DNA of 64,000 nt from Cladosporium halotolerans (lineage: Eukaryota): the NCBI RefSeq assembly GCF_011745625.1, contig NW_027191486.1, positions 1-64,000 of the forward strand. The letters are read 5' to 3'. A program made the position numbers and the translations under genes. Below the pieces are notes generated by a model. The model saw nothing but the letters and a program-made list of their open reading frames with translations. It ran no database searches and was not told the origin of the DNA. Shown piece by piece: positions 12,258 to 30,770 of the stretch (its first letter is position 1; every line of letters begins with the position of its first letter).

Positions 12258-12557
12258 AAGGCGTTTCGGTTTGAGGCGTTCAGGCGGATAGGTGCAGGAG
12301 TGCAAGGGTTCAGAGCAGACGCCGACGTCGAAGAGCTCCCAGGAACAGAGTCGATGAGGCAATGGCTTGACGCAACGCGGGGTCTGCCCTGGCCCGTGAA
12401 CCGCTCGAGCAGTGCAGTCCGACCCCACGTCACACCATCCAAGCAGTGAGAGAGCAGCAGCCGCAAAGCCAACCGGTATTTTGATAATCTTCCCGACCGA
12501 GCAATACAACCCTCCACCTTAGCAACCACAGTCGCCCTACAGGCTACAGTCGCCAAA

Positions 12558-12782
12558 ATGGTCAGAACATCCTCCCAACTCAAAACCAACCACAGCTAAC
12601 ACTCAACCCCAGGCCTCCGAATCCCGCCTCTACACCTTCTCGCCCGAAACCAAAGACGCCCTGCGCAAATTCCGGCTGAGCACCTCGCGCGCGAAAGACC
12701 CGCAAGCCGTAATCTGTACGTCCCCGCCAGTCCCTGTCCAGCTTCGAAAAGAAAAGACAGACAGACAGAAAGAAAGAAAGAA

Positions 12783-12843
<61 letters not shown>

Positions 12844-13241
12844 CGGGCCAAGACACGCGAAGCCGCGAAGCACCATAAGGTACAACCCCACCAGGCTGAC
12901 CACGCGCCACGGCCACAGACGAAATATCCAAAGACCTCGAGATCCGGCCCTCGACGCCGCACGAAACCTACAGCAACATGGAAGACCTCTCCGACGCGCT
13001 GCCCGACAACAGCCCGCGGTTCATCCTGCTCTCGCACCCGCTCACGCTCGGCAGCGGCCGGCTGAGCGTGCCCTACGTGATGCTGAACTACCTGCCCGCG
13101 ACGTGCAGCCAGTCAGCGCGGATGCTGTACGCGGGGGCGAAGGAGCTGATGCGGAGCCAGAGCGAGGTGGGGCGGGTGGTGGAGATTGAGGATGCGGAGG
13201 AGGTGGTGGGGATCGAGGGGGTGTTGCAGGGGGAGGATTGA
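12558..13241 (+). CDS. AIM7: Glia maturation factor (ADF-H family); introns 12561-12612 and 12716-12918
   Basis: Spliced M|ASESRLYTFSPETKDALRKFRL..AVI|YEI..LPDNSPRFILLSHP..RMLYAGAKE. Confidence 0.9.
12757..12840. repeat. Compound microsatellite (CAGA)/(AAAG)/(GA)~27 inside a GMF intron
   Basis: Read directly from the sequence. Confidence 0.95.
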
Positions 13242-14071
13242 TCTTGCGGAGTTTTTGTTCTTGTGGGTAGGGGAGGGGGGAGGGGTGTGAATGGGCGTGG
13301 AGAGGTGAGAAGGAGGTGAGACGACACGGCATGGCACGGCATGGCACGGCACGGCACGGACGCACTGGACGATTTGGACGAGGAAAGAGACGGCAAGTGA
13401 AGTCAGAGGAACAGATGAGAATACTAAGGTCCACGAAGACAATCGGGGGAGGAAGAAGAAGAAGTAGAACACAAACAAGGAAGCACCTCTCTTTGAATCA
13501 ACGCCGTCCGCCCCTATCATGAACTAAAACAGCTTGTGCTTCTAAACGACGTGAGACTCAGACGAAGAGAAGGAGAAGAAGTGGAAGGAGAAGAAAGGTA
13601 GAGAGAGGGATTGGAGAAAAAAAGGAATAAGAGAAATAAAAAGAAGTTTGCAAGAAAGCGAGGCTTGCCACGCCCGTTGCTCTCTCGAGAGAACCAATGC
13701 CACAGTAGTAAAAAGTGAAAAAAAAAGAAAAAGGATATAATGCGATAAAGTCCCGGTCCCAGTGGCCCTCTTTTGTTCTCGTGTCGAGAGGTCCCTTTCC
13801 CTTCCTTACTTCCTTCCTTCCGTCCATCACCTTGCTTCCCTGTGCCCTCTTTTTATTTTTTGCTTGCGGAGACCGAGGAGCTCGCGTGTCTCCCGCTCCT
13901 TCCTCTCGAGTAATGAGAAGAACGTTTACGTCGCGCGTGATTAATAAAAGGCGCGAATGATACCCAATGCAATCCGGTACTTGAGTCGCCTTGCAGTCGT
14001 CAATTGCCGCAAGTCGTGGGTACTGGATCCTCAACCTTCTCTCTTCCGATCGGCGATGGTGGACGCCCGTC

Positions 14072-23316: not shown

Positions 23317-24629
23317 TCAAGGCGTCGGACTCTGCTGATGCGTGCTCGTCGCATTACTCCTCTGCGACGACTTCCGCCCACTCCACCGACTCCCAGACCA
23401 CGAGAACCCAGCACTCGACCCACGCGCCTTCACCTCCTCAGGTACATTACCACCCCGATCTTCCTGGTTAAGCAGCCCACCAACATCCTGGAACGTGACC
23501 TCAAAATCTCTCGAATACGCGATACTGTTGCTCGAGTGCTTAGAATTAACCAGCGAAGCTCTGTGACTCTCCCCTCGTGAGGACACGGGCACATGTTCAG
23601 CAGTCGCGAACGAGATGCCCCTCTCCGGCCTCAGCTGGAGTCTGTGGACCCCATAGCCGTAATCCGCACTCCCTCGCGGGCTCGTGGGAACGCCTGTATC
23701 CTTCCGCATTGTCGGCCTCTGCACAGGGAGGATCGAAGTCCTCGGTCTGCCTAGGATCCCGCTCGCGAATACCGAGAAGAACGGTTTGGCGCAAGGTACC
23801 GTGGCGGAGATGACGCTGATCTGACACGCGAACAGTGACATGACTTGCAGTCTGACGACTACGGCGGCAGGGTCGGAGCTGAAGACGCTGGAGTGGAGGA
23901 TGGGCAGTCGTACGGCGCTGGGCGGAATGATGAAGAGCCGGCAGGCGAAGGCGATGAGGACTTTGGCTTTCGTTTTGCGCGACATGGGGATGCCCCAGAC
24001 TAGTCGGACTGCACCAGCGAAGAGGGCGAGCTCCAGGACCCAGGAAAGCACTGCGGTGGCGAGCCTATGGCCCCACTTGATAGAAGTAAAGTCAGAAATA
24101 GGTCTTGCAAATGTGGACGCGGCAAGAGTGAGCTTACTCGGTCATGGCAATGTTTCCTAGACGAGGTGTCCCACGGATGAGGATAGCTGCACTGGAAGAC
24201 CGCCGAAACCTGCGCCTGGATCAACCACATGGTCATGGCTACCATCAGCGCGTAAGCCACCGCGAGGTGCTCTCTTGTCCTGGTGATGCGAGCTAGCAAG
24301 AAGCATGCCGAGATCTTGGAGAAATAGCCGGCGAAAGTGAGCAAGAAGCCATTGACCCAGCCGATGATGGCCAGGTTGTTCTTCTCCACGGATGATAGAT
24401 GGCGGAGTCGGAAGCCTAAGCCCAGAAAGACTTGCACCACGACAATCACCGAGTAGAAGAGCCCAAAGACGGTGCTTATCGCGCATGCCCAGTCATCTTT
24501 GCCAAATGGTCCGTTGACTTTGAGACGAAGGAATAAGCGGATGGCGAAGACTAAGATGAGATAGATAGCGGAGGTCACGGCGAGTACGATGACATACGCT
24601 GGTCCGGTCTCCAATCCGAAAGCAGGCAT
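23317..24629 (-). CDS. PTH11-like (fungal rhodopsin-domain) integral membrane protein; one intron near 24076-24137
   Basis: G.DDW motif, AVFQC..PHPWD..C, about 7 TM helices, VPCAKPF and a Ser-rich tail. Confidence 0.8.
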
Positions 24630-25083
24630 CAATCGGCTTGAATGACTAGTTTCATTTCCTAGGGGTGTAAAGGAGCTAGGCTGTGGAGAACATTCTGAAG
24701 TGAAGCTAGTCAAGCAATGAGCAGGCCCTCCCATGGTTCTTTCCGGCTACGTCTCTAGGATATCGTGCGCAAGTTTTGGTCCGTCGGGCTCAGGTGATGT
24801 ACCTTGTAGTGTATCCGGAAGTCGAATCTCGCGTGGCGCAGTATAGACGCACATGCACACAAGGGAGGAAGGGGCATCCTCGCAACTCGGTCCGACTTGC
24901 TCGGCGAAGAAGAACAAGATAAGCGCATGTGGTTATCGCATCAGAACGCACTCACAATCAACAACCCTCCCTCAAACTCCATACCCATTTACTATAGCCT
25001 AGCCTCGGCAGTCTCGTATCATTCACTCAATAATCCTATCTGGCAGAGCCGTATGGAGCACCTGTAATCCATCCATTGCGATC

Positions 25084-27012
25084 ATGGCCGACACAATCAA
25101 GCAACGGTCAATCTCGACCCGGCCGGAAAGCCCTATTCGATTTCGAAATGTTTTCGACGGAGAAGACGAAAAGGACCATGACGGTAATCATCATGACAAG
25201 ATGGATATGCAGCGGATGGGAAAACCGCAGCAGCTCAAACGAAACTTCGAGATGGTCTCCACTATCGGCTTCACGTCATGTGTCATGGGGTCCGTTACTC
25301 CTCAAGTTGTCCGCGATAGAAGCTGACTTGTTCGCAGAACGTAGGAAGTGCTTTTGGCAACAAGTGGTGTCAGCATGAAGAATGGCGGTCTTCCTGGCCT
25401 CTTCTGGTCTATGGTTTAGGTGACAATCGGACAATTCTTTGTAGGCCTTTTCAGCCCTAGAAAAGCCGTCCAAGCATTAACTTTCCATGCTGATCGCTCA
25501 ACAGGTAGTGCTCTCACTGGCAGAGTTGGCATCCTCCGCACCTACTGCTGGTGGACAATACCACTGGGTTTCTGAGTACGCCCCAGTCCGATGGCAGCGA
25601 GTTCTGTCCTACTGCTCTGGATGGCTTGGTATGGTGTCATGGCAGAGCATGATTGTCATCGACTGTTACATGGTTGCCGACATCATCCAGGCAGTTGTCC
25701 AGATTGCCCGGCCAGATTATGTCGCCACACGGTGGCGTGGGACGTTACTTACCATGGCTACTGGACTCGTTGTTTCTTCTTTCCATATTCTGTTAGCGAG
25801 CCATCTCTCCTGGTGCGAAGGCGTCTTTGCCACAATCCACTTCTTTGCCTTCGTTCCAGTTCTGGTGGGGCTCTTCGTCCTTGCTCCAAAACAGAGAGCG
25901 GCCGACGTCTTCCTCAATTTCACCGACGTCCACGGGAACTGGCCCGATAGGAGCATCGCAGTGCTAGTTGGCCAAGTGTCGAACTTTTTTGTCATGCTTG
26001 GAAGTGATGGTAAGATCCGCACGACGCAATCCATGAGTGGCTCACATCCGTATCTGGCGCTACTTTGTTGACACAGGTTGCTGATGTACGAACAGGCGTT
26101 GCTCATTTAGCAGAAGAAATTGAAGACGCGGGAATCATTCTTCCGCGGAGCATGCTCTACTCCTACTTTGTCAATGCCCCATTGACAGTACTGATGGCCG
26201 CGGTCTTCTGCTTCAGCGTCACCTCACTTCCGAAAGCGCTCGCAAGCCCGATGCCTTTCGTCACTGTGTTCCATGATGTGTTCCAAGAGCGAGATGCCGC
26301 AATCGCATTCTCAGCTGTTGTCTTGGCCCTGGTGACCATGGTTGCAGTGAGCGCCCTGGCGGCAACCTCACGCCAGATTTTCGCCTTTGCGTAAGTCTTG
26401 CGGTGCCTGACATACCCGCCAGCACAATGGAAGGGCAAAACCGACATAGACTCGAGCGCTGACTACGTTCTCAGTCGTGATAAAGGCCTTCCATATTCGG
26501 ACTGGCTCGCAACGATCGATGGCCGCTTTGACGTGCCCGTCAACACCATTATCATCACCTTCCTTTTCACATGCTGCATGTCCCTAATCAACCTAGGCAG
26601 CAAAGTCGCCTTCGAAGCCATGCTCAGCCTTGCAACCGTCGCACTAATGGCAACATACCTGATCTCAATTGGCTGTGTTCTCCTGAAACGAGTGCGAGGC
26701 GAGCCACTTCCGCCCGCGCGGTGGTCTTTGGGCCGCTACGGAACGGCTGTCAATGCGATTGCTGTGGTTCATACCGCTTGGTCGGTGAGTCTGCCTCAAT
26801 CCAGTAATAGTAGGTCATAGCCCACTGACATCGTCTTGCAGTTCTTCTGGGCCTTCTGGCCCTCGACATCTGACGTCCACAGTGGCACCTTCAACTGGTC
26901 ATGCGTGCTGTTCTTGATCTTCCTTGCATGCGCATTATTGACTTACCACCTTCACGCGAAGCACACCTACGAAGGACCAGCTTCTTACATCACGGCACGG
27001 GAGGAAGAATAA
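25084..27012 (+). CDS. APC-superfamily permease (HNM1/UGA4-like), six exons, with two in-frame TAG codons in exon 2; either recoded or a recent pseudogene
   Basis: LKRNF..STIGF..VMG|T*E..NGG..GLFWSMV*..GQFF|VVLSLAELASSAPTAGGQYHWV, AHLAEE, RQIFAFA|RDKGLP, YEGP. Introns 25290-25337, 25441-25504, 26010-26095, 26390-26474 and 26785-26841. Confidence 0.85.
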
Positions 27013-27268: not shown

Positions 27269-30200
27269 TTACTGGGAAAAGTAGTCGAGCTTCGGCTTCT
27301 TCGACATCTGCATAGTGGCGTCCGTCGGGGTCTTCGCCTCAGAGACAGTAGCCGGCGTATGAGGACCAGAATCCGCGGAGGATGCGGCGGCAATAGCAAC
27401 AGCCGTGAACCGCTCGTAGTCCTTCTCGATGCGCAGTTTCTCTTTCTGCATGTGCTGAAAATCACTGTTCGGATCGTTCTCCCAGTGCCTAACACAGACA
27501 TGACAATCAACAAAGAAGCCGTGGTTGGTGTGATAGCCCAGCATTTCCAATTCCGGAATGGATTCGTCGATCAAGCGAGCTGTATCCCATTGAAGACAAT
27601 CCTCGCAGAATCCCTTCTCACACCAACGGCAGCGATACATCAGGCCGCCGGCTTCGGTCGTCTTCTTCGTGCAGTCGAAGCATTCATGCTGAGGGCAATA
27701 GAAGTTGCCGGAAGAGATTCCCGCTTTGCCCTGCATTTCCTTGCTCAGGCAATCAACGTGGTAGCTGCGAGGGCAGCCACTGCAGCAGACGAGATCGCCA
27801 CCGTCCCAGCAGACTTGACAATGGTCCTGGCTGGTGATTGGTTTCTTCTTCGCCTTCTTAGGCTCAGCAAGACGCGGGTCCTTTCCAGCAAAAGTAGGCA
27901 CAGCCTCCCAATCAGCACATTCCATACTTTCCTTATTGATTGCAAAGCCATCTACCATTACGGTAGTGTTCTTGCCCAAACGGCGGTCAGCATGGTTGAG
28001 ATCCAGGGGCGCACCCACAGCCGAAGCAGCTTTGCCATGGTGTCTCTTGCCTTCGAAAATCGCTGTCTCGACCTTCTCAACGTTGTTGAGCCAAGCCTCC
28101 TCGTCAACATCAGGCTTCGCATCGGTATCCAGGTTGGTGGCAAGCGGATCCTGCTGTCTATCCTTGCACTTTTCCAGCGTTGTCTCCCAGTCCCAACCGA
28201 TCATCTCGTTGACATCGATCTCTGGAGTCACAAGAGTCTGCGCGCCGCGGCGAATCAGAGACTTAAGCTCAGACTTGTCAAGTTGCGGCGTGTCATCTTC
28301 GCCAGAGAAATCCTCGCCATGCTTGCGCTTGTTGCTCTGGCGGTCGGTGTGCAAGTTGCGCATGTTCCCAGTGACCTTGACAGACAAGTACATTTTCTTG
28401 CGAATGCGGCTCATCATCTGTTCTTCGACCGTGCCTTGAGTGCACAGCTTGTAAACGGTGACTTTCTGGGTTTGACCGATGCGATGCGAACGTGCCTCTG
28501 CCTGCAAAGTGACCTGCGGGTTCCAGTCTTCGTCCATGAATACCACCTCGGTGGCAGGTGTGAGGTTGATACCAAGACCACCGGCTCTAGTAGAAAGAAG
28601 CATGATGTTGCAGTTGGACTTCGGATCGTTGAACATGCGGATCGCAAGATTTCTCTTCGCGCGGACCGTGCTACCGTCAAGCCTCAAGTACTTGAGCGAG
28701 CCGGAACCGCTAGCGTTGCGAATGAACGCAAGGAGATCTTCGATAATATCCAGGGTCCTCGTCCAACCAGAGAAAATGAGGATCTTCTTTCCTTGCTTGA
28801 TGACCAACTCTTGCAACAACTTATCAAGGACAATGAACTTACCGGAAGCAATGCGCACGTGATTCCCGATCACGTACGGCTCAGGGCATGATCCAGGTAG
28901 CAGATACGGGTGAGAGCAGGCCTTGCGCAGCTGAACGAGCAAGTTCATCAGCTTGCGGTAATCCTTGTCGGATGATTCTGACGCCTGCATAGCATCGACC
29001 ATGATGTTCTTGCTGTCGGCCCAGATGTCGAGGTTGCCAGTATTCGAGGCGCCGTTCTGCGCGAGCGTCGGCTTCTGATCATCCGCGCTCGTTTGCTTCA
29101 CATCCTCTTCCGCCTTGACCTTACTGGCTTTGAACAAGTCTTCCAGTAGCAAAGTGTCGACTTTTGTTAGAAGTCGAGTATACCAAAATCTCTGCATCGG
29201 CGTGAGCGGAACGAACAGCAGGACCTCTTCCTTCGGCTCTAGGTCAAGATCCACACCTGGGCTGCTCTTCATGCGCCTTAGCATAATGAGCTCGAGTAAG
29301 CGGCGGGCGCTGTCCATGAACGATGTGGACGCTCTTCCTTTCGTCAGGTCGAACGCCTGCTGAAATCCTGTGGCAGTATCGGCGGTGAACACCTCGGGAA
29401 ACAGCCAGTGCAACAGCGACCATAGCTCTTGAAGGTTGTTCTGAAGCGGAGTTCCGGTCAAGATGAGGCGATGTTCGGCTTGCAGTGATTGCAGTGAGGT
29501 TGCCACATTCGTCCTCTCAGACTTGATCTTGTGTCCCTCGTCCAGAACAACGTAGCGCCAAACGAAAGCACTCTTGAACCAAGCCTGTTCAGACACGAAC
29601 ATTTCGTACGACGTGATGACAACGTCTACCGGGTTCGGATCCTCAGACAGGTCGATTGCATCGTTTTTGGACGTGCCCTTGGTTTGAACTCCGTATCTAT
29701 CGATAGCACCGAGAATCTCCCGCTTCAAACGGTCGCGTACTTGTTTCGTGCCGTGGAAAGTGATAGCTTTCAGTTCCGGGACCCACTTGGCCACCTCGGT
29801 AGTCCACGAAGGGAGGACACTGAGCGGGCAGATAACCAGAAAGGGTCTTTCTTCTTCCGAGGTCACCGGATCGGTGACCTTCAAGTATTGAAACAAGGAC
29901 AGTGTCTGCAGGGTCTTTCCGAGTCCCATTTCATCGCCCAAGACAGCTGACATGCCGTTGCGATACATGTGAACCAGGAATGACAAGCCCTCCATTTGGT
30001 ACGGCTTTACGATGGCTTTGATCCCTGTCGGCTGTGGCGATAGCGGATCTTTGGGAACGATCTCGGGATCTTGACCGTTGATCGCACGCTGTTTCTCCAG
30101 TCTTGCAATGTAATTGCTTGCTGGGAGAAGCGGTACAAAGAATTCCTTGTGCGCTAGTAGAAAGGTGTCGCGCTTTGGCTTAGTTTGGCTTGCAATCTCA

Positions 30201-30770
30201 TTTCTGATGAGATTGCGGGCAGTGGCGCGCTTCTTAGACTCCATTGGCGAAATACCGGTGCTAGGCGTTTTGGTAGTGAAAGGGTTGTTGGCGTCGGAGG
30301 CTATGGATTTCTTGTAGGTCCGATGGGTTATCGCGTAGCTGACAGTTTGCCTAGCGGCGCGCGTTGGCAATTGGCGAGTGGTAGGTACGGCTGGAACTGG
30401 AGCGCTGCCTTGCGGAGCGCCCGCAGCTTTGGCCTCTGTTAGTCGTCATTTTCCCTATATAGATAAGCTCAAACTTACCAGTGGCAGAGCCCTCAGAGGT
30501 CAAGGTCCCAGTGGTATCAATATTGGCCTTCGCGGGCGTTGGAGACTTAGGCAAGCTGGCGAAGCTCAATGGGCTTTCGCTGCTCACGCTGCTGGCCTTG
30601 TCGATCTGATGCTGCATTTCCTTCCTCATTTTGCTGACCGAAGCTGGCGAGGGTGAGGCACCAAAGGCGACGAGAAGATCCGAAAGCTTGGTAGGAGTCC
30701 TGGGTGTCCTTGGAGGAGACGCGCCAATGGACGCAGCCTTGCGCTGGTCGGGAGACTGTGAGTTCTCCAT
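27269..30770 (-). CDS. SNF2-family helicase with C-terminal PHD finger and second Cys-rich zinc module; intron 30436-30478
   Basis: LGDEMGLGKT, LDEGH, LTGTPLQNN, STRAGGLGINL, QAEARSHRIGQ; then CQVCWDGGDLVCC..CPRSYH..C and CPQHECFDC..CRWC..FCEDC. Confidence 0.9.

Follow-up and report, generated by a model that had tools for sequence, protein, structure and literature searches.

The closest described systems are the "premature stop codon correction" (PSC) genes of Fusarium and Neurospora, which depend on restorative adenosine-to-inosine (A-to-I) editing of the mRNA, turning UAG into UGG. The PSC sites of Fusarium mostly go back to TGG codons; the same site can arise more than once independently, and sites can disappear and be gained again (PMC10776026). 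Editing strongly prefers U at position -1 of the target A and hairpin loops (PMC11156358). At a conserved edited stop in Fusarium, the CHE1 paper describes a downstream start and an invented intron as annotation artefacts (PMC11169179). According to a 2024 review, it has yet to be established which classes of filamentous ascomycetes edit mRNA (PMC11156358). Here we analyse a gene of the dothideomycete Cladosporium halotolerans, contained in a stretch of 64,000 nucleotides (contig NW_027191486.1, hereafter the window). The gene, at 25084-27012 on the + strand, encodes a permease of the amino acid/choline type, and its six exons join to 1590 nt, that is 529 codons plus a TAA terminator. The spliced coding sequence has two in-frame stops only, both TAG, at codons 71 and 96 (sites 1 and 2; coordinates in Table 1). 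An earlier note on this DNA had suggested a stage-gated transporter switched on by recoding, with Trp expected at both sites.

The homologous proteins bear out this expectation. A search with exon 3 returned 32 homologs, and the residue at site 1 is Trp in all 24 of the more distant ones that have a residue there. At site 2, Trp is present in 8 of 29, among them the closest relatives (P0001, P0003, P0005, P0006 and P0008). Judged from these alignments, Trp is the ancestral residue at both sites. Two further codons are considered below: site 4 (codon 249) is Trp in 31 of 32 homologs, and site 3 (codon 453) is Trp in 11 and Phe in 17 of 29. Compared with the named fungal APC permeases ("choline transport protein", "GABA permease"), the window gene shares with them the AA_permease_2 matches on exons 3 and 5. 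To named permeases from fungi outside this clade it is 29-59% identical, with the conserved G-T-W-E and SLAE..APTAGGQYHW motifs in common. The difference is that the named permeases encode Trp directly at the positions that would be recoded here.

To see how the stops are distributed among relatives, we turned to metagenomes. One scan gave 22 loci, 17 of them with 68-78% amino acid identity in exon 3. Where these loci reach the neighbouring genes, the downstream SNF2 gene was found in 11 and the upstream rhodopsin-domain gene in 6, so that those loci are syntenic orthologs; the neighbours are syntenic at 47-68% amino acid identity, below the value of the permease. The codons of the orthologs were read directly in exon 2 and by tblastn. 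TAG occupies site 1 in every one of the ten loci that cover it, which gives a positive answer to the question, raised in the earlier note, of whether the stop is conserved in related species. TAG and TGG alternate among the orthologs at site 2, and also at sites 3 and 4, where the window itself has TGG. No TGA or TAA was found at Trp codons in the 17 orthologous loci, nor was any exon frameshift, the alignments breaking at intron positions only.

These open reading frames (ORFs) have been kept under constraint. Between TAG-bearing orthologs, the ratio of nonsynonymous to synonymous substitution rates (dN/dS) is 0.06-0.11 at dS 0.5-1, synonymous sites being saturated between the window and the other clades. 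Five pairs have a defined dS over codons 60-143, the part around the TAGs that precedes the first internal Met; dN/dS there is 0.32 for L001-L011 and 0.025-0.07 for the other four. Purifying selection is strong on both sides of the stops, and dN/dS is not near the value of 1 that the note had named as a refutation. In a quick maximum-likelihood tree, some forks of which are weakly supported, the window branches first, then C. fusiforme, then two metagenome clades. Parsimony on this tree requires 1, 3, 2 and 1 TGG/TAG changes at sites 1, 2, 3 and 4, and these seven changes match the recurrent gain and loss described for the PSC sites of Fusarium (PMC10776026). Site 1 is the putative ancestral recoded site of the clade. 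The TAG pattern exceeds chance, because TGG>TAG makes up only 9-19% of the single-step nonsense opportunities in the coding sequence, yet this one class of change is seen again and again, at four Trp codons in the clade; mutation would produce TGG>TGA just as readily. Repeat-induced point mutation (RIP) was rejected as its source. RIP criteria are TpA/ApT above 0.89 and (CpA+TpG)/(ApC+GpT) below 1.03; the gene has 0.53 and 1.35, reaching neither threshold, and keeps 14 TGG codons, in agreement with the doubt that the note had expressed about such an origin. Taken together, the comparisons show UAG at what appear to be former Trp codons to be tolerated, conserved and repeatedly re-created, and for the clade as a whole they rule out a plain pseudogene.

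The stops are also shared within the species complex. Part of the stretch is contained in 23 of the 24 public runs listed, and four runs were compared in detail, two of DNA (X4 and X8) and two of RNA (X5 and X6). A single contig spans the compared stretch in each DNA run, with 11 differences in 2101 nt for X4 (99.5% identical) and 66 for X8 (about 96.9% identical). The difference table lists 40 rows, all 11 of X4 and the first 29 found in X8 only, up to 25930, with a further 28 rows beyond the listing; the X8 listing was taken as complete over 24950-25930. Positions 25343 and 25418, the A of each TAG, are not among the differences listed for X4 and X8. The stops are neither private to one strain nor a read error, either of which would have undone the earlier proposal. 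Over codons 1-245, the window and X8 differ at 22 positions, 19 synonymous and 3 nonsynonymous (pN/pS, the corresponding ratio for polymorphisms, 0.048), and 19 of the 22 are third positions (binomial P 4e-7). Two of the synonymous differences, 25416 and 25440, flank TAG 2, which makes a recent transfer of the TAG-bearing segment between the lineages unlikely and indicates that both lineages evolved under constraint with the stops present. Run X1, DNA of the sample of X6, contains 1.00 of the sampled words of the stretch.

The TAGs are very probably decoded by some mechanism, and we consider A-to-I editing of the mRNA to be, on balance, the probable one. By analogy, the pattern across the clade is the comparative signature of the restorative UAG-to-UGG editing known from Sordariomycetes, and the permease is, as far as the literature searched shows, the first recoding-dependent PSC-type candidate for a Dothideomycete. 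As in the PSC genes of Fusarium and Neurospora, a TGG-derived in-frame TAG is conserved in a constrained ORF, gains and losses occur independently at the same site, U precedes the target A, gene callers resort to a downstream Met or an invented intron, and unedited transcripts are present, as they are for PSC genes outside the editing stage. It differs from the PSC systems in its host, a Dothideomycete, in that editing is proposed here from sequence comparison, and in being a permease with up to two TAGs per ortholog and four affected Trp codons clade-wide, with lineage-specific turnover.

Under editing, a functional permease mRNA would have to be recoded at the UAGs standing for ancestral Trp. 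Codon 71 has been TAG since before the split of the sampled Cladosporium-type lineages, codon 96 turned into TAG in the window lineage and in part of another clade, and sister lineages have TAG at two further Trp codons. The likeliest decoder would be the tRNA deaminase Tad2/Tad3, converting U-A-G to U-I-G, which would be read as UGG (Trp). Unedited transcripts would yield no transporter, and the TAGs could thereby act as a switch limiting the protein to a stage or condition with active editing. Of the stage-gated, recoded transporter proposed at the outset, the recoding has gained the support of conservation and purifying selection; the mechanism and the stage gating have gained none.

The surroundings of the TAGs fit such a substrate in part. 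U at -1 follows from the definition of UAG. At site 2 of clade I, the predicted fold is a stem of 5+5 bp with a 7-nt loop, CUAGGUC (z-scores -2.2 and -2.4). It has the U33-A34-like bases, the loop length and the 5-bp stem of an anticodon arm, as in tRNAs deaminated at A34 by Tad2/Tad3 (ADAT2/3); the sequences UAGG, UAGU and UAGC presumably resemble anticodon loops of A34 tRNAs as well. Predicted loops are clear at site 4 and in four of the six site 3 sequences. The resemblance to tRNA A34 substrates does not extend to site 1 and the window's own site 2, where this hairpin is not conserved. Rare cofactor-free editing of mRNA hairpins by ADAT enzymes has been described for E. coli TadA and for hyphal editing in F. 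graminearum (cited in PMC11169179).

Several points weigh against editing. The first is the RNA: no A>G was seen, the X5 and X6 contigs reading A at 25418 and leaving 25343 uncovered, although such contigs drop minor variants, the growth stage of both runs is not known, and both come from one study. The folds are a second point, since the window's own site 2 hairpin is no better than shuffled sequences (z -0.3), and site 1 is predicted to be paired in five of eight sequences and unpaired in three. Third, ortholog L002 has at Arg457 (1696-1698) a TGA, which is not editable, where the near-identical L006 has CGA; this is the sole in-frame stop other than TAG in the 17 orthologous loci, and L002 may be a truly dead allele or contain an assembly error. 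Fourth, the presence of both TAGs in X8 depends on a completeness of the difference listing that is inferred, not direct. The literature adds a fifth. Editing of mRNA is reported from Sordariomycetes and Pyronema only and was not found genome-wide in A. nidulans and B. cinerea (PMC11156358); the Ame1-Tad3 interaction arose in Sordariomycetes, with an independent origin suggested in Pezizomycetes (Feng et al. 2024, PMC11087585), and this activator interaction is said not to exist outside the former class (PMC11087585). Nor did the available portions of the literature on fungal A-to-I editing, Cladosporium and Zymoseptoria contain a report of mRNA editing in Dothideomycetes, so that the organism does lie outside the lineages known to edit, as the earlier note had considered.

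The remaining points against editing come from the window's own copy, and they also favour a possibility compatible with it, namely that the gene was recoded ancestrally and is now decaying in this strain. We regard this as rather unlikely, and it is the alternative that survives best. Four differences common to X4 and X8 are derived in the window, which gives its terminal branch one synonymous change (25251) against three nonsynonymous ones: N197H (25784), I352T (26336) and Y469H (26770), all at residues invariant in the 17 orthologs. Moreover, the RNA contigs of both runs have an extra T in the run of six T at 25985-25990; seven T would shift the frame and lead to a TGA within 8 codons. The degraded site 2 hairpin of the window points the same way. 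These signs hint at recent relaxed constraint or altered function in the window lineage. Against decay, the polarised changes number only four, six T are kept in the window and in the DNA of X4 and X8, and the older divergence inside the species complex was strongly constrained. The extra T reflects either a DNA-level frameshift in the RNA-seq strain or a discrepancy between its RNA and DNA.

A ribosomal mechanism appears improbable to us. Here a suppressor tRNA, for example one with a CUA anticodon, would decode UAG, or programmed near-cognate readthrough would take place there; either way, little full-length permease would be made. Conservation and purifying selection show that the TAGs are decoded, not how, and readthrough predicts A at site 2 in the RNA, as seen. 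What it does not predict is a preference for Trp: every one of the four recoded sites is an ancestral Trp codon and carries TAG, and the residues that yeast inserts at UAG by readthrough are mainly Gln, Tyr or Lys. With two or three TAGs in a row, low efficiencies would also be multiplied. Certain 3' contexts stimulate stop-codon readthrough; the four TAGs are followed by different bases (GGA/GGU, GUC/GUG, UCA and CUG), with no conserved stimulatory context among them. A tRNA scan found no gene in the 64-kb window, which counts against a suppressor tRNA there. Finally, reading TAG as Trp gives 66 TAG-spanning ORFs of 150 codons or more in the window; we left out 3 that overlap the permease and scanned 63 with Pfam, and none had a match crossing a TAG. 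TAG is thus not broadly reassigned in the window, although with about 20 genes the window makes this a weak test.

That the TAGs never meet the ribosome in frame, owing to alternative splicing or to an N-terminally truncated product starting at an internal Met, is very unlikely. This idea draws on two database proteins. P0002 (C. halotolerans, 384 aa), 100% identical where covered, starts at the exon 3 Met, downstream of both TAGs. P0001 (C. fusiforme, 573 aa, 71% identical) has Trp at site 2 and reads VMGSEVLL where other homologs read VMGTWEILL; on the window DNA, a donor shifted by +4 nt combined with the AG of TAG 1 as acceptor (+7) keeps the frame and yields this very peptide. The main RNA contigs, moreover, begin downstream of TAG 1. 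However, correctly spliced RNA retains TAG 2, and sites 3 and 4 sit inside exons. In all eight sequences (the window and seven distinct orthologous loci), intron 1 has a GTNNGT donor and a YAG acceptor, a consensus to which the shifted donors (GTTACT, GTCTGA and others) do not conform. In all orthologs the canonical acceptor is placed exactly 7 nt upstream of the AG of TAG 1, and the intervening Thr codon shows synonymous variation (ACC, ACA, ACG); the fixed spacing and this variation place TAG 1 in the coding frame of the mature mRNA and not at a splice site. Truncation is opposed by the low dN/dS of codons 60-143, upstream of the internal Met, in four of five pairs, and by structure: in the LeuT fold, a permease without transmembrane helices 1 and 2 (TM1-TM2) would lack its substrate site. 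The P0001 model looks like the product of a spurious intron placed around a TAG, as judged from the window DNA and the protein.

An ordinary young pseudogene, with two G>A nonsense mutations of spontaneous or RIP type and the rest undecayed, could account for the common TGG>TAG transition (also a TpG>TpA, RIP-type change), the excess of nonsynonymous changes on the window's terminal branch, the frame-shifting T in the RNA contigs, the added TGA of L002 and the truncated model P0002, and is nevertheless highly improbable given a site 1 TAG in every covering ortholog across synonymous saturation, dN/dS of 0.06-0.11 between TAG-bearing orthologs, 17 loci all free of frameshifts, pN/pS of 0.048 between two TAG-bearing lineages, Trp-codon stops that are all TAG and never the equally likely TGA, normal RIP indices, and relaxation signals that concern at most the latest history of this strain.

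The gene model itself is well supported. The coordinates of exon 2 and its flanking introns, the TAG positions and the otherwise intact frame given in the earlier note were all recovered in our rebuilt splice model, with GT..AG borders at all five introns. The note was also right that skipping the 103-nt exon 2 breaks the frame and that translation from the ATG at 25375, which is in frame, would meet TAG 2. The Pfam family AA_permease_2 (PF13520) matches exon 3 (E 2.5e-11, 43.6 bits) and exon 5 (E 3.2e-13, 49.8 bits), both above the gathering cut-off of 27 bits. RNA contigs of X5 and X6 (from Logan), two runs with the same organism label as the best-matching DNA run, skip exactly introns 2-5. 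Intron 1 and TAG 1 lie upstream of these contigs, which may represent a 5'-truncated vegetative transcript without the start codon and TAG 1; support for intron 1 comes from the splice-site consensus conserved at this place in seven distinct orthologous loci. The 29-nt loose end of the X6 contig has no match in the window at up to 3 mismatches, and there is no AG acceptor at 25357, where it joins; the loose end might stem from a chimeric cDNA or from an alternative 5' exon with a non-canonical junction. Separate RNA contigs of low depth cover 24950-25119/25135 and may be the 5' untranslated region of the divergent upstream neighbour.

Table 1. Features of the permease gene in the window, with the state of the four Trp codons in the orthologous loci
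Feature	Position	Strand	Support and remarks	TAG in orthologs	TGG in orthologs
Amino acid/choline-type permease gene (APC superfamily, Pfam AA_permease_2)	25084..27012	+	exon model, Pfam, homologs		
Exon 1	25084..25289	+	N-terminal tail and start of TM1; ends ...VMG; donor GTCCGT fits GTNNGT		
Intron 1	25290..25337	+	48 nt, GT..AG, CTGAC branch-like motif; no RNA contig coverage		
Exon 2	25338..25440	+	103 nt; holds both TAG codons; RNA contigs cover 25357/25368-25440, joined to 25505		
Site 1 (TAG)	25342..25344	+	codon 71, G-T-W-E motif of TM1	10/10 covering loci (7 distinct sequences)	none
RNA contig 5' ends	25357..25368	+	X6 at 25357 (29-nt loose end), X5 at 25368		
Site 2 (TAG)	25417..25419	+	codon 96, S-M-V-W	L003, L008, L009, L010, L013 (5/11)	L001, L002, L004, L005, L007, L011
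Intron 2	25441..25504	+	64 nt; spliced out in X5 and X6 RNA contigs		
Exon 3	25505..26009	+	splice model, Pfam match, RNA contigs		
Site 4 (Trp)	25940..25942	+	codon 249; TGG in window	L016 (1/17)	16 other loci
T6 run	25985..25990	+	one T more in X5 and X6 RNA contigs		
Exon 4	26096..26390	+	splice model, RNA contigs		
Exon 5	26475..26784	+	splice model, Pfam match, RNA contigs		
Site 3 (Trp)	26722..26724	+	codon 453, A-R-W-S-L-G-R; TGG in window	L001, L002, L006, L011, L012, L014 (6/15)	9 other covering loci
Exon 6 with TAA terminator	26842..27012	+	splice model, RNA contigs		

The gene structure varies among the relatives. An extra intron lies just before R-M-G-K in the metagenome clades. 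In clade I, exon 1 is interrupted by another intron, and exons 3 and 4 are fused through loss of the window's intron 3; additional introns interrupt exon 4 in clade II and exon 3 in L015. A "codon 43 TAG" in L001 was rejected as an in-frame stop, being the acceptor of an extra intron. Among the proteins, the model of P0006 (Sphaceloma murrayae) is without 12 residues, CVMGTWEILLTS, around site 1, which its relative P0003 (Elsinoe fawcettii) has. The gap in P0006 could mean that this model, too, avoids an in-frame stop, in which case the phenomenon would reach into Elsinoaceae.

The permease is flanked upstream by a divergent gene for a fungal-rhodopsin-domain membrane protein (23317-24746, - strand) and downstream by a convergent ORF of 1058 aa for an SNF2-type helicase (27269-30445, - strand). 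Elsewhere in the window, at about 12400-13400, there is a repeat of GA/CT dinucleotide type, with (RE)n or (LS)n runs in the ORF translations.

As to the biology of the genus, we lean slightly towards a reading in which Cladosporium, and so at least part of the Dothideomycetes, has working A-to-I editing of mRNA and keeps this permease behind one to three UAG "locks". These would have been in place since before the split of the sampled Cladosporium-type lineages and been added and removed at Trp codons lineage by lineage. Editing in Cladosporium would then be a third independent origin after Sordariomycetes and Pezizomycetes, or the work of an Ame1-independent Tad2/Tad3 on anticodon-arm-like hairpins; if true, editing arose again or works without the Sordariomycete innovation. 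The TAGs explain the mis-annotation of the gene in public Cladosporium genomes. For the question of which classes edit, a conserved TAG-for-Trp gene in Cladosporium is a concrete and cheap test case. More generally, where the sexual stage of a fungus is difficult to obtain, its editing-dependent genes can be picked out by comparative genomics alone, from low dN/dS combined with conserved Trp codons that are replaced by TAG and never by TGA.

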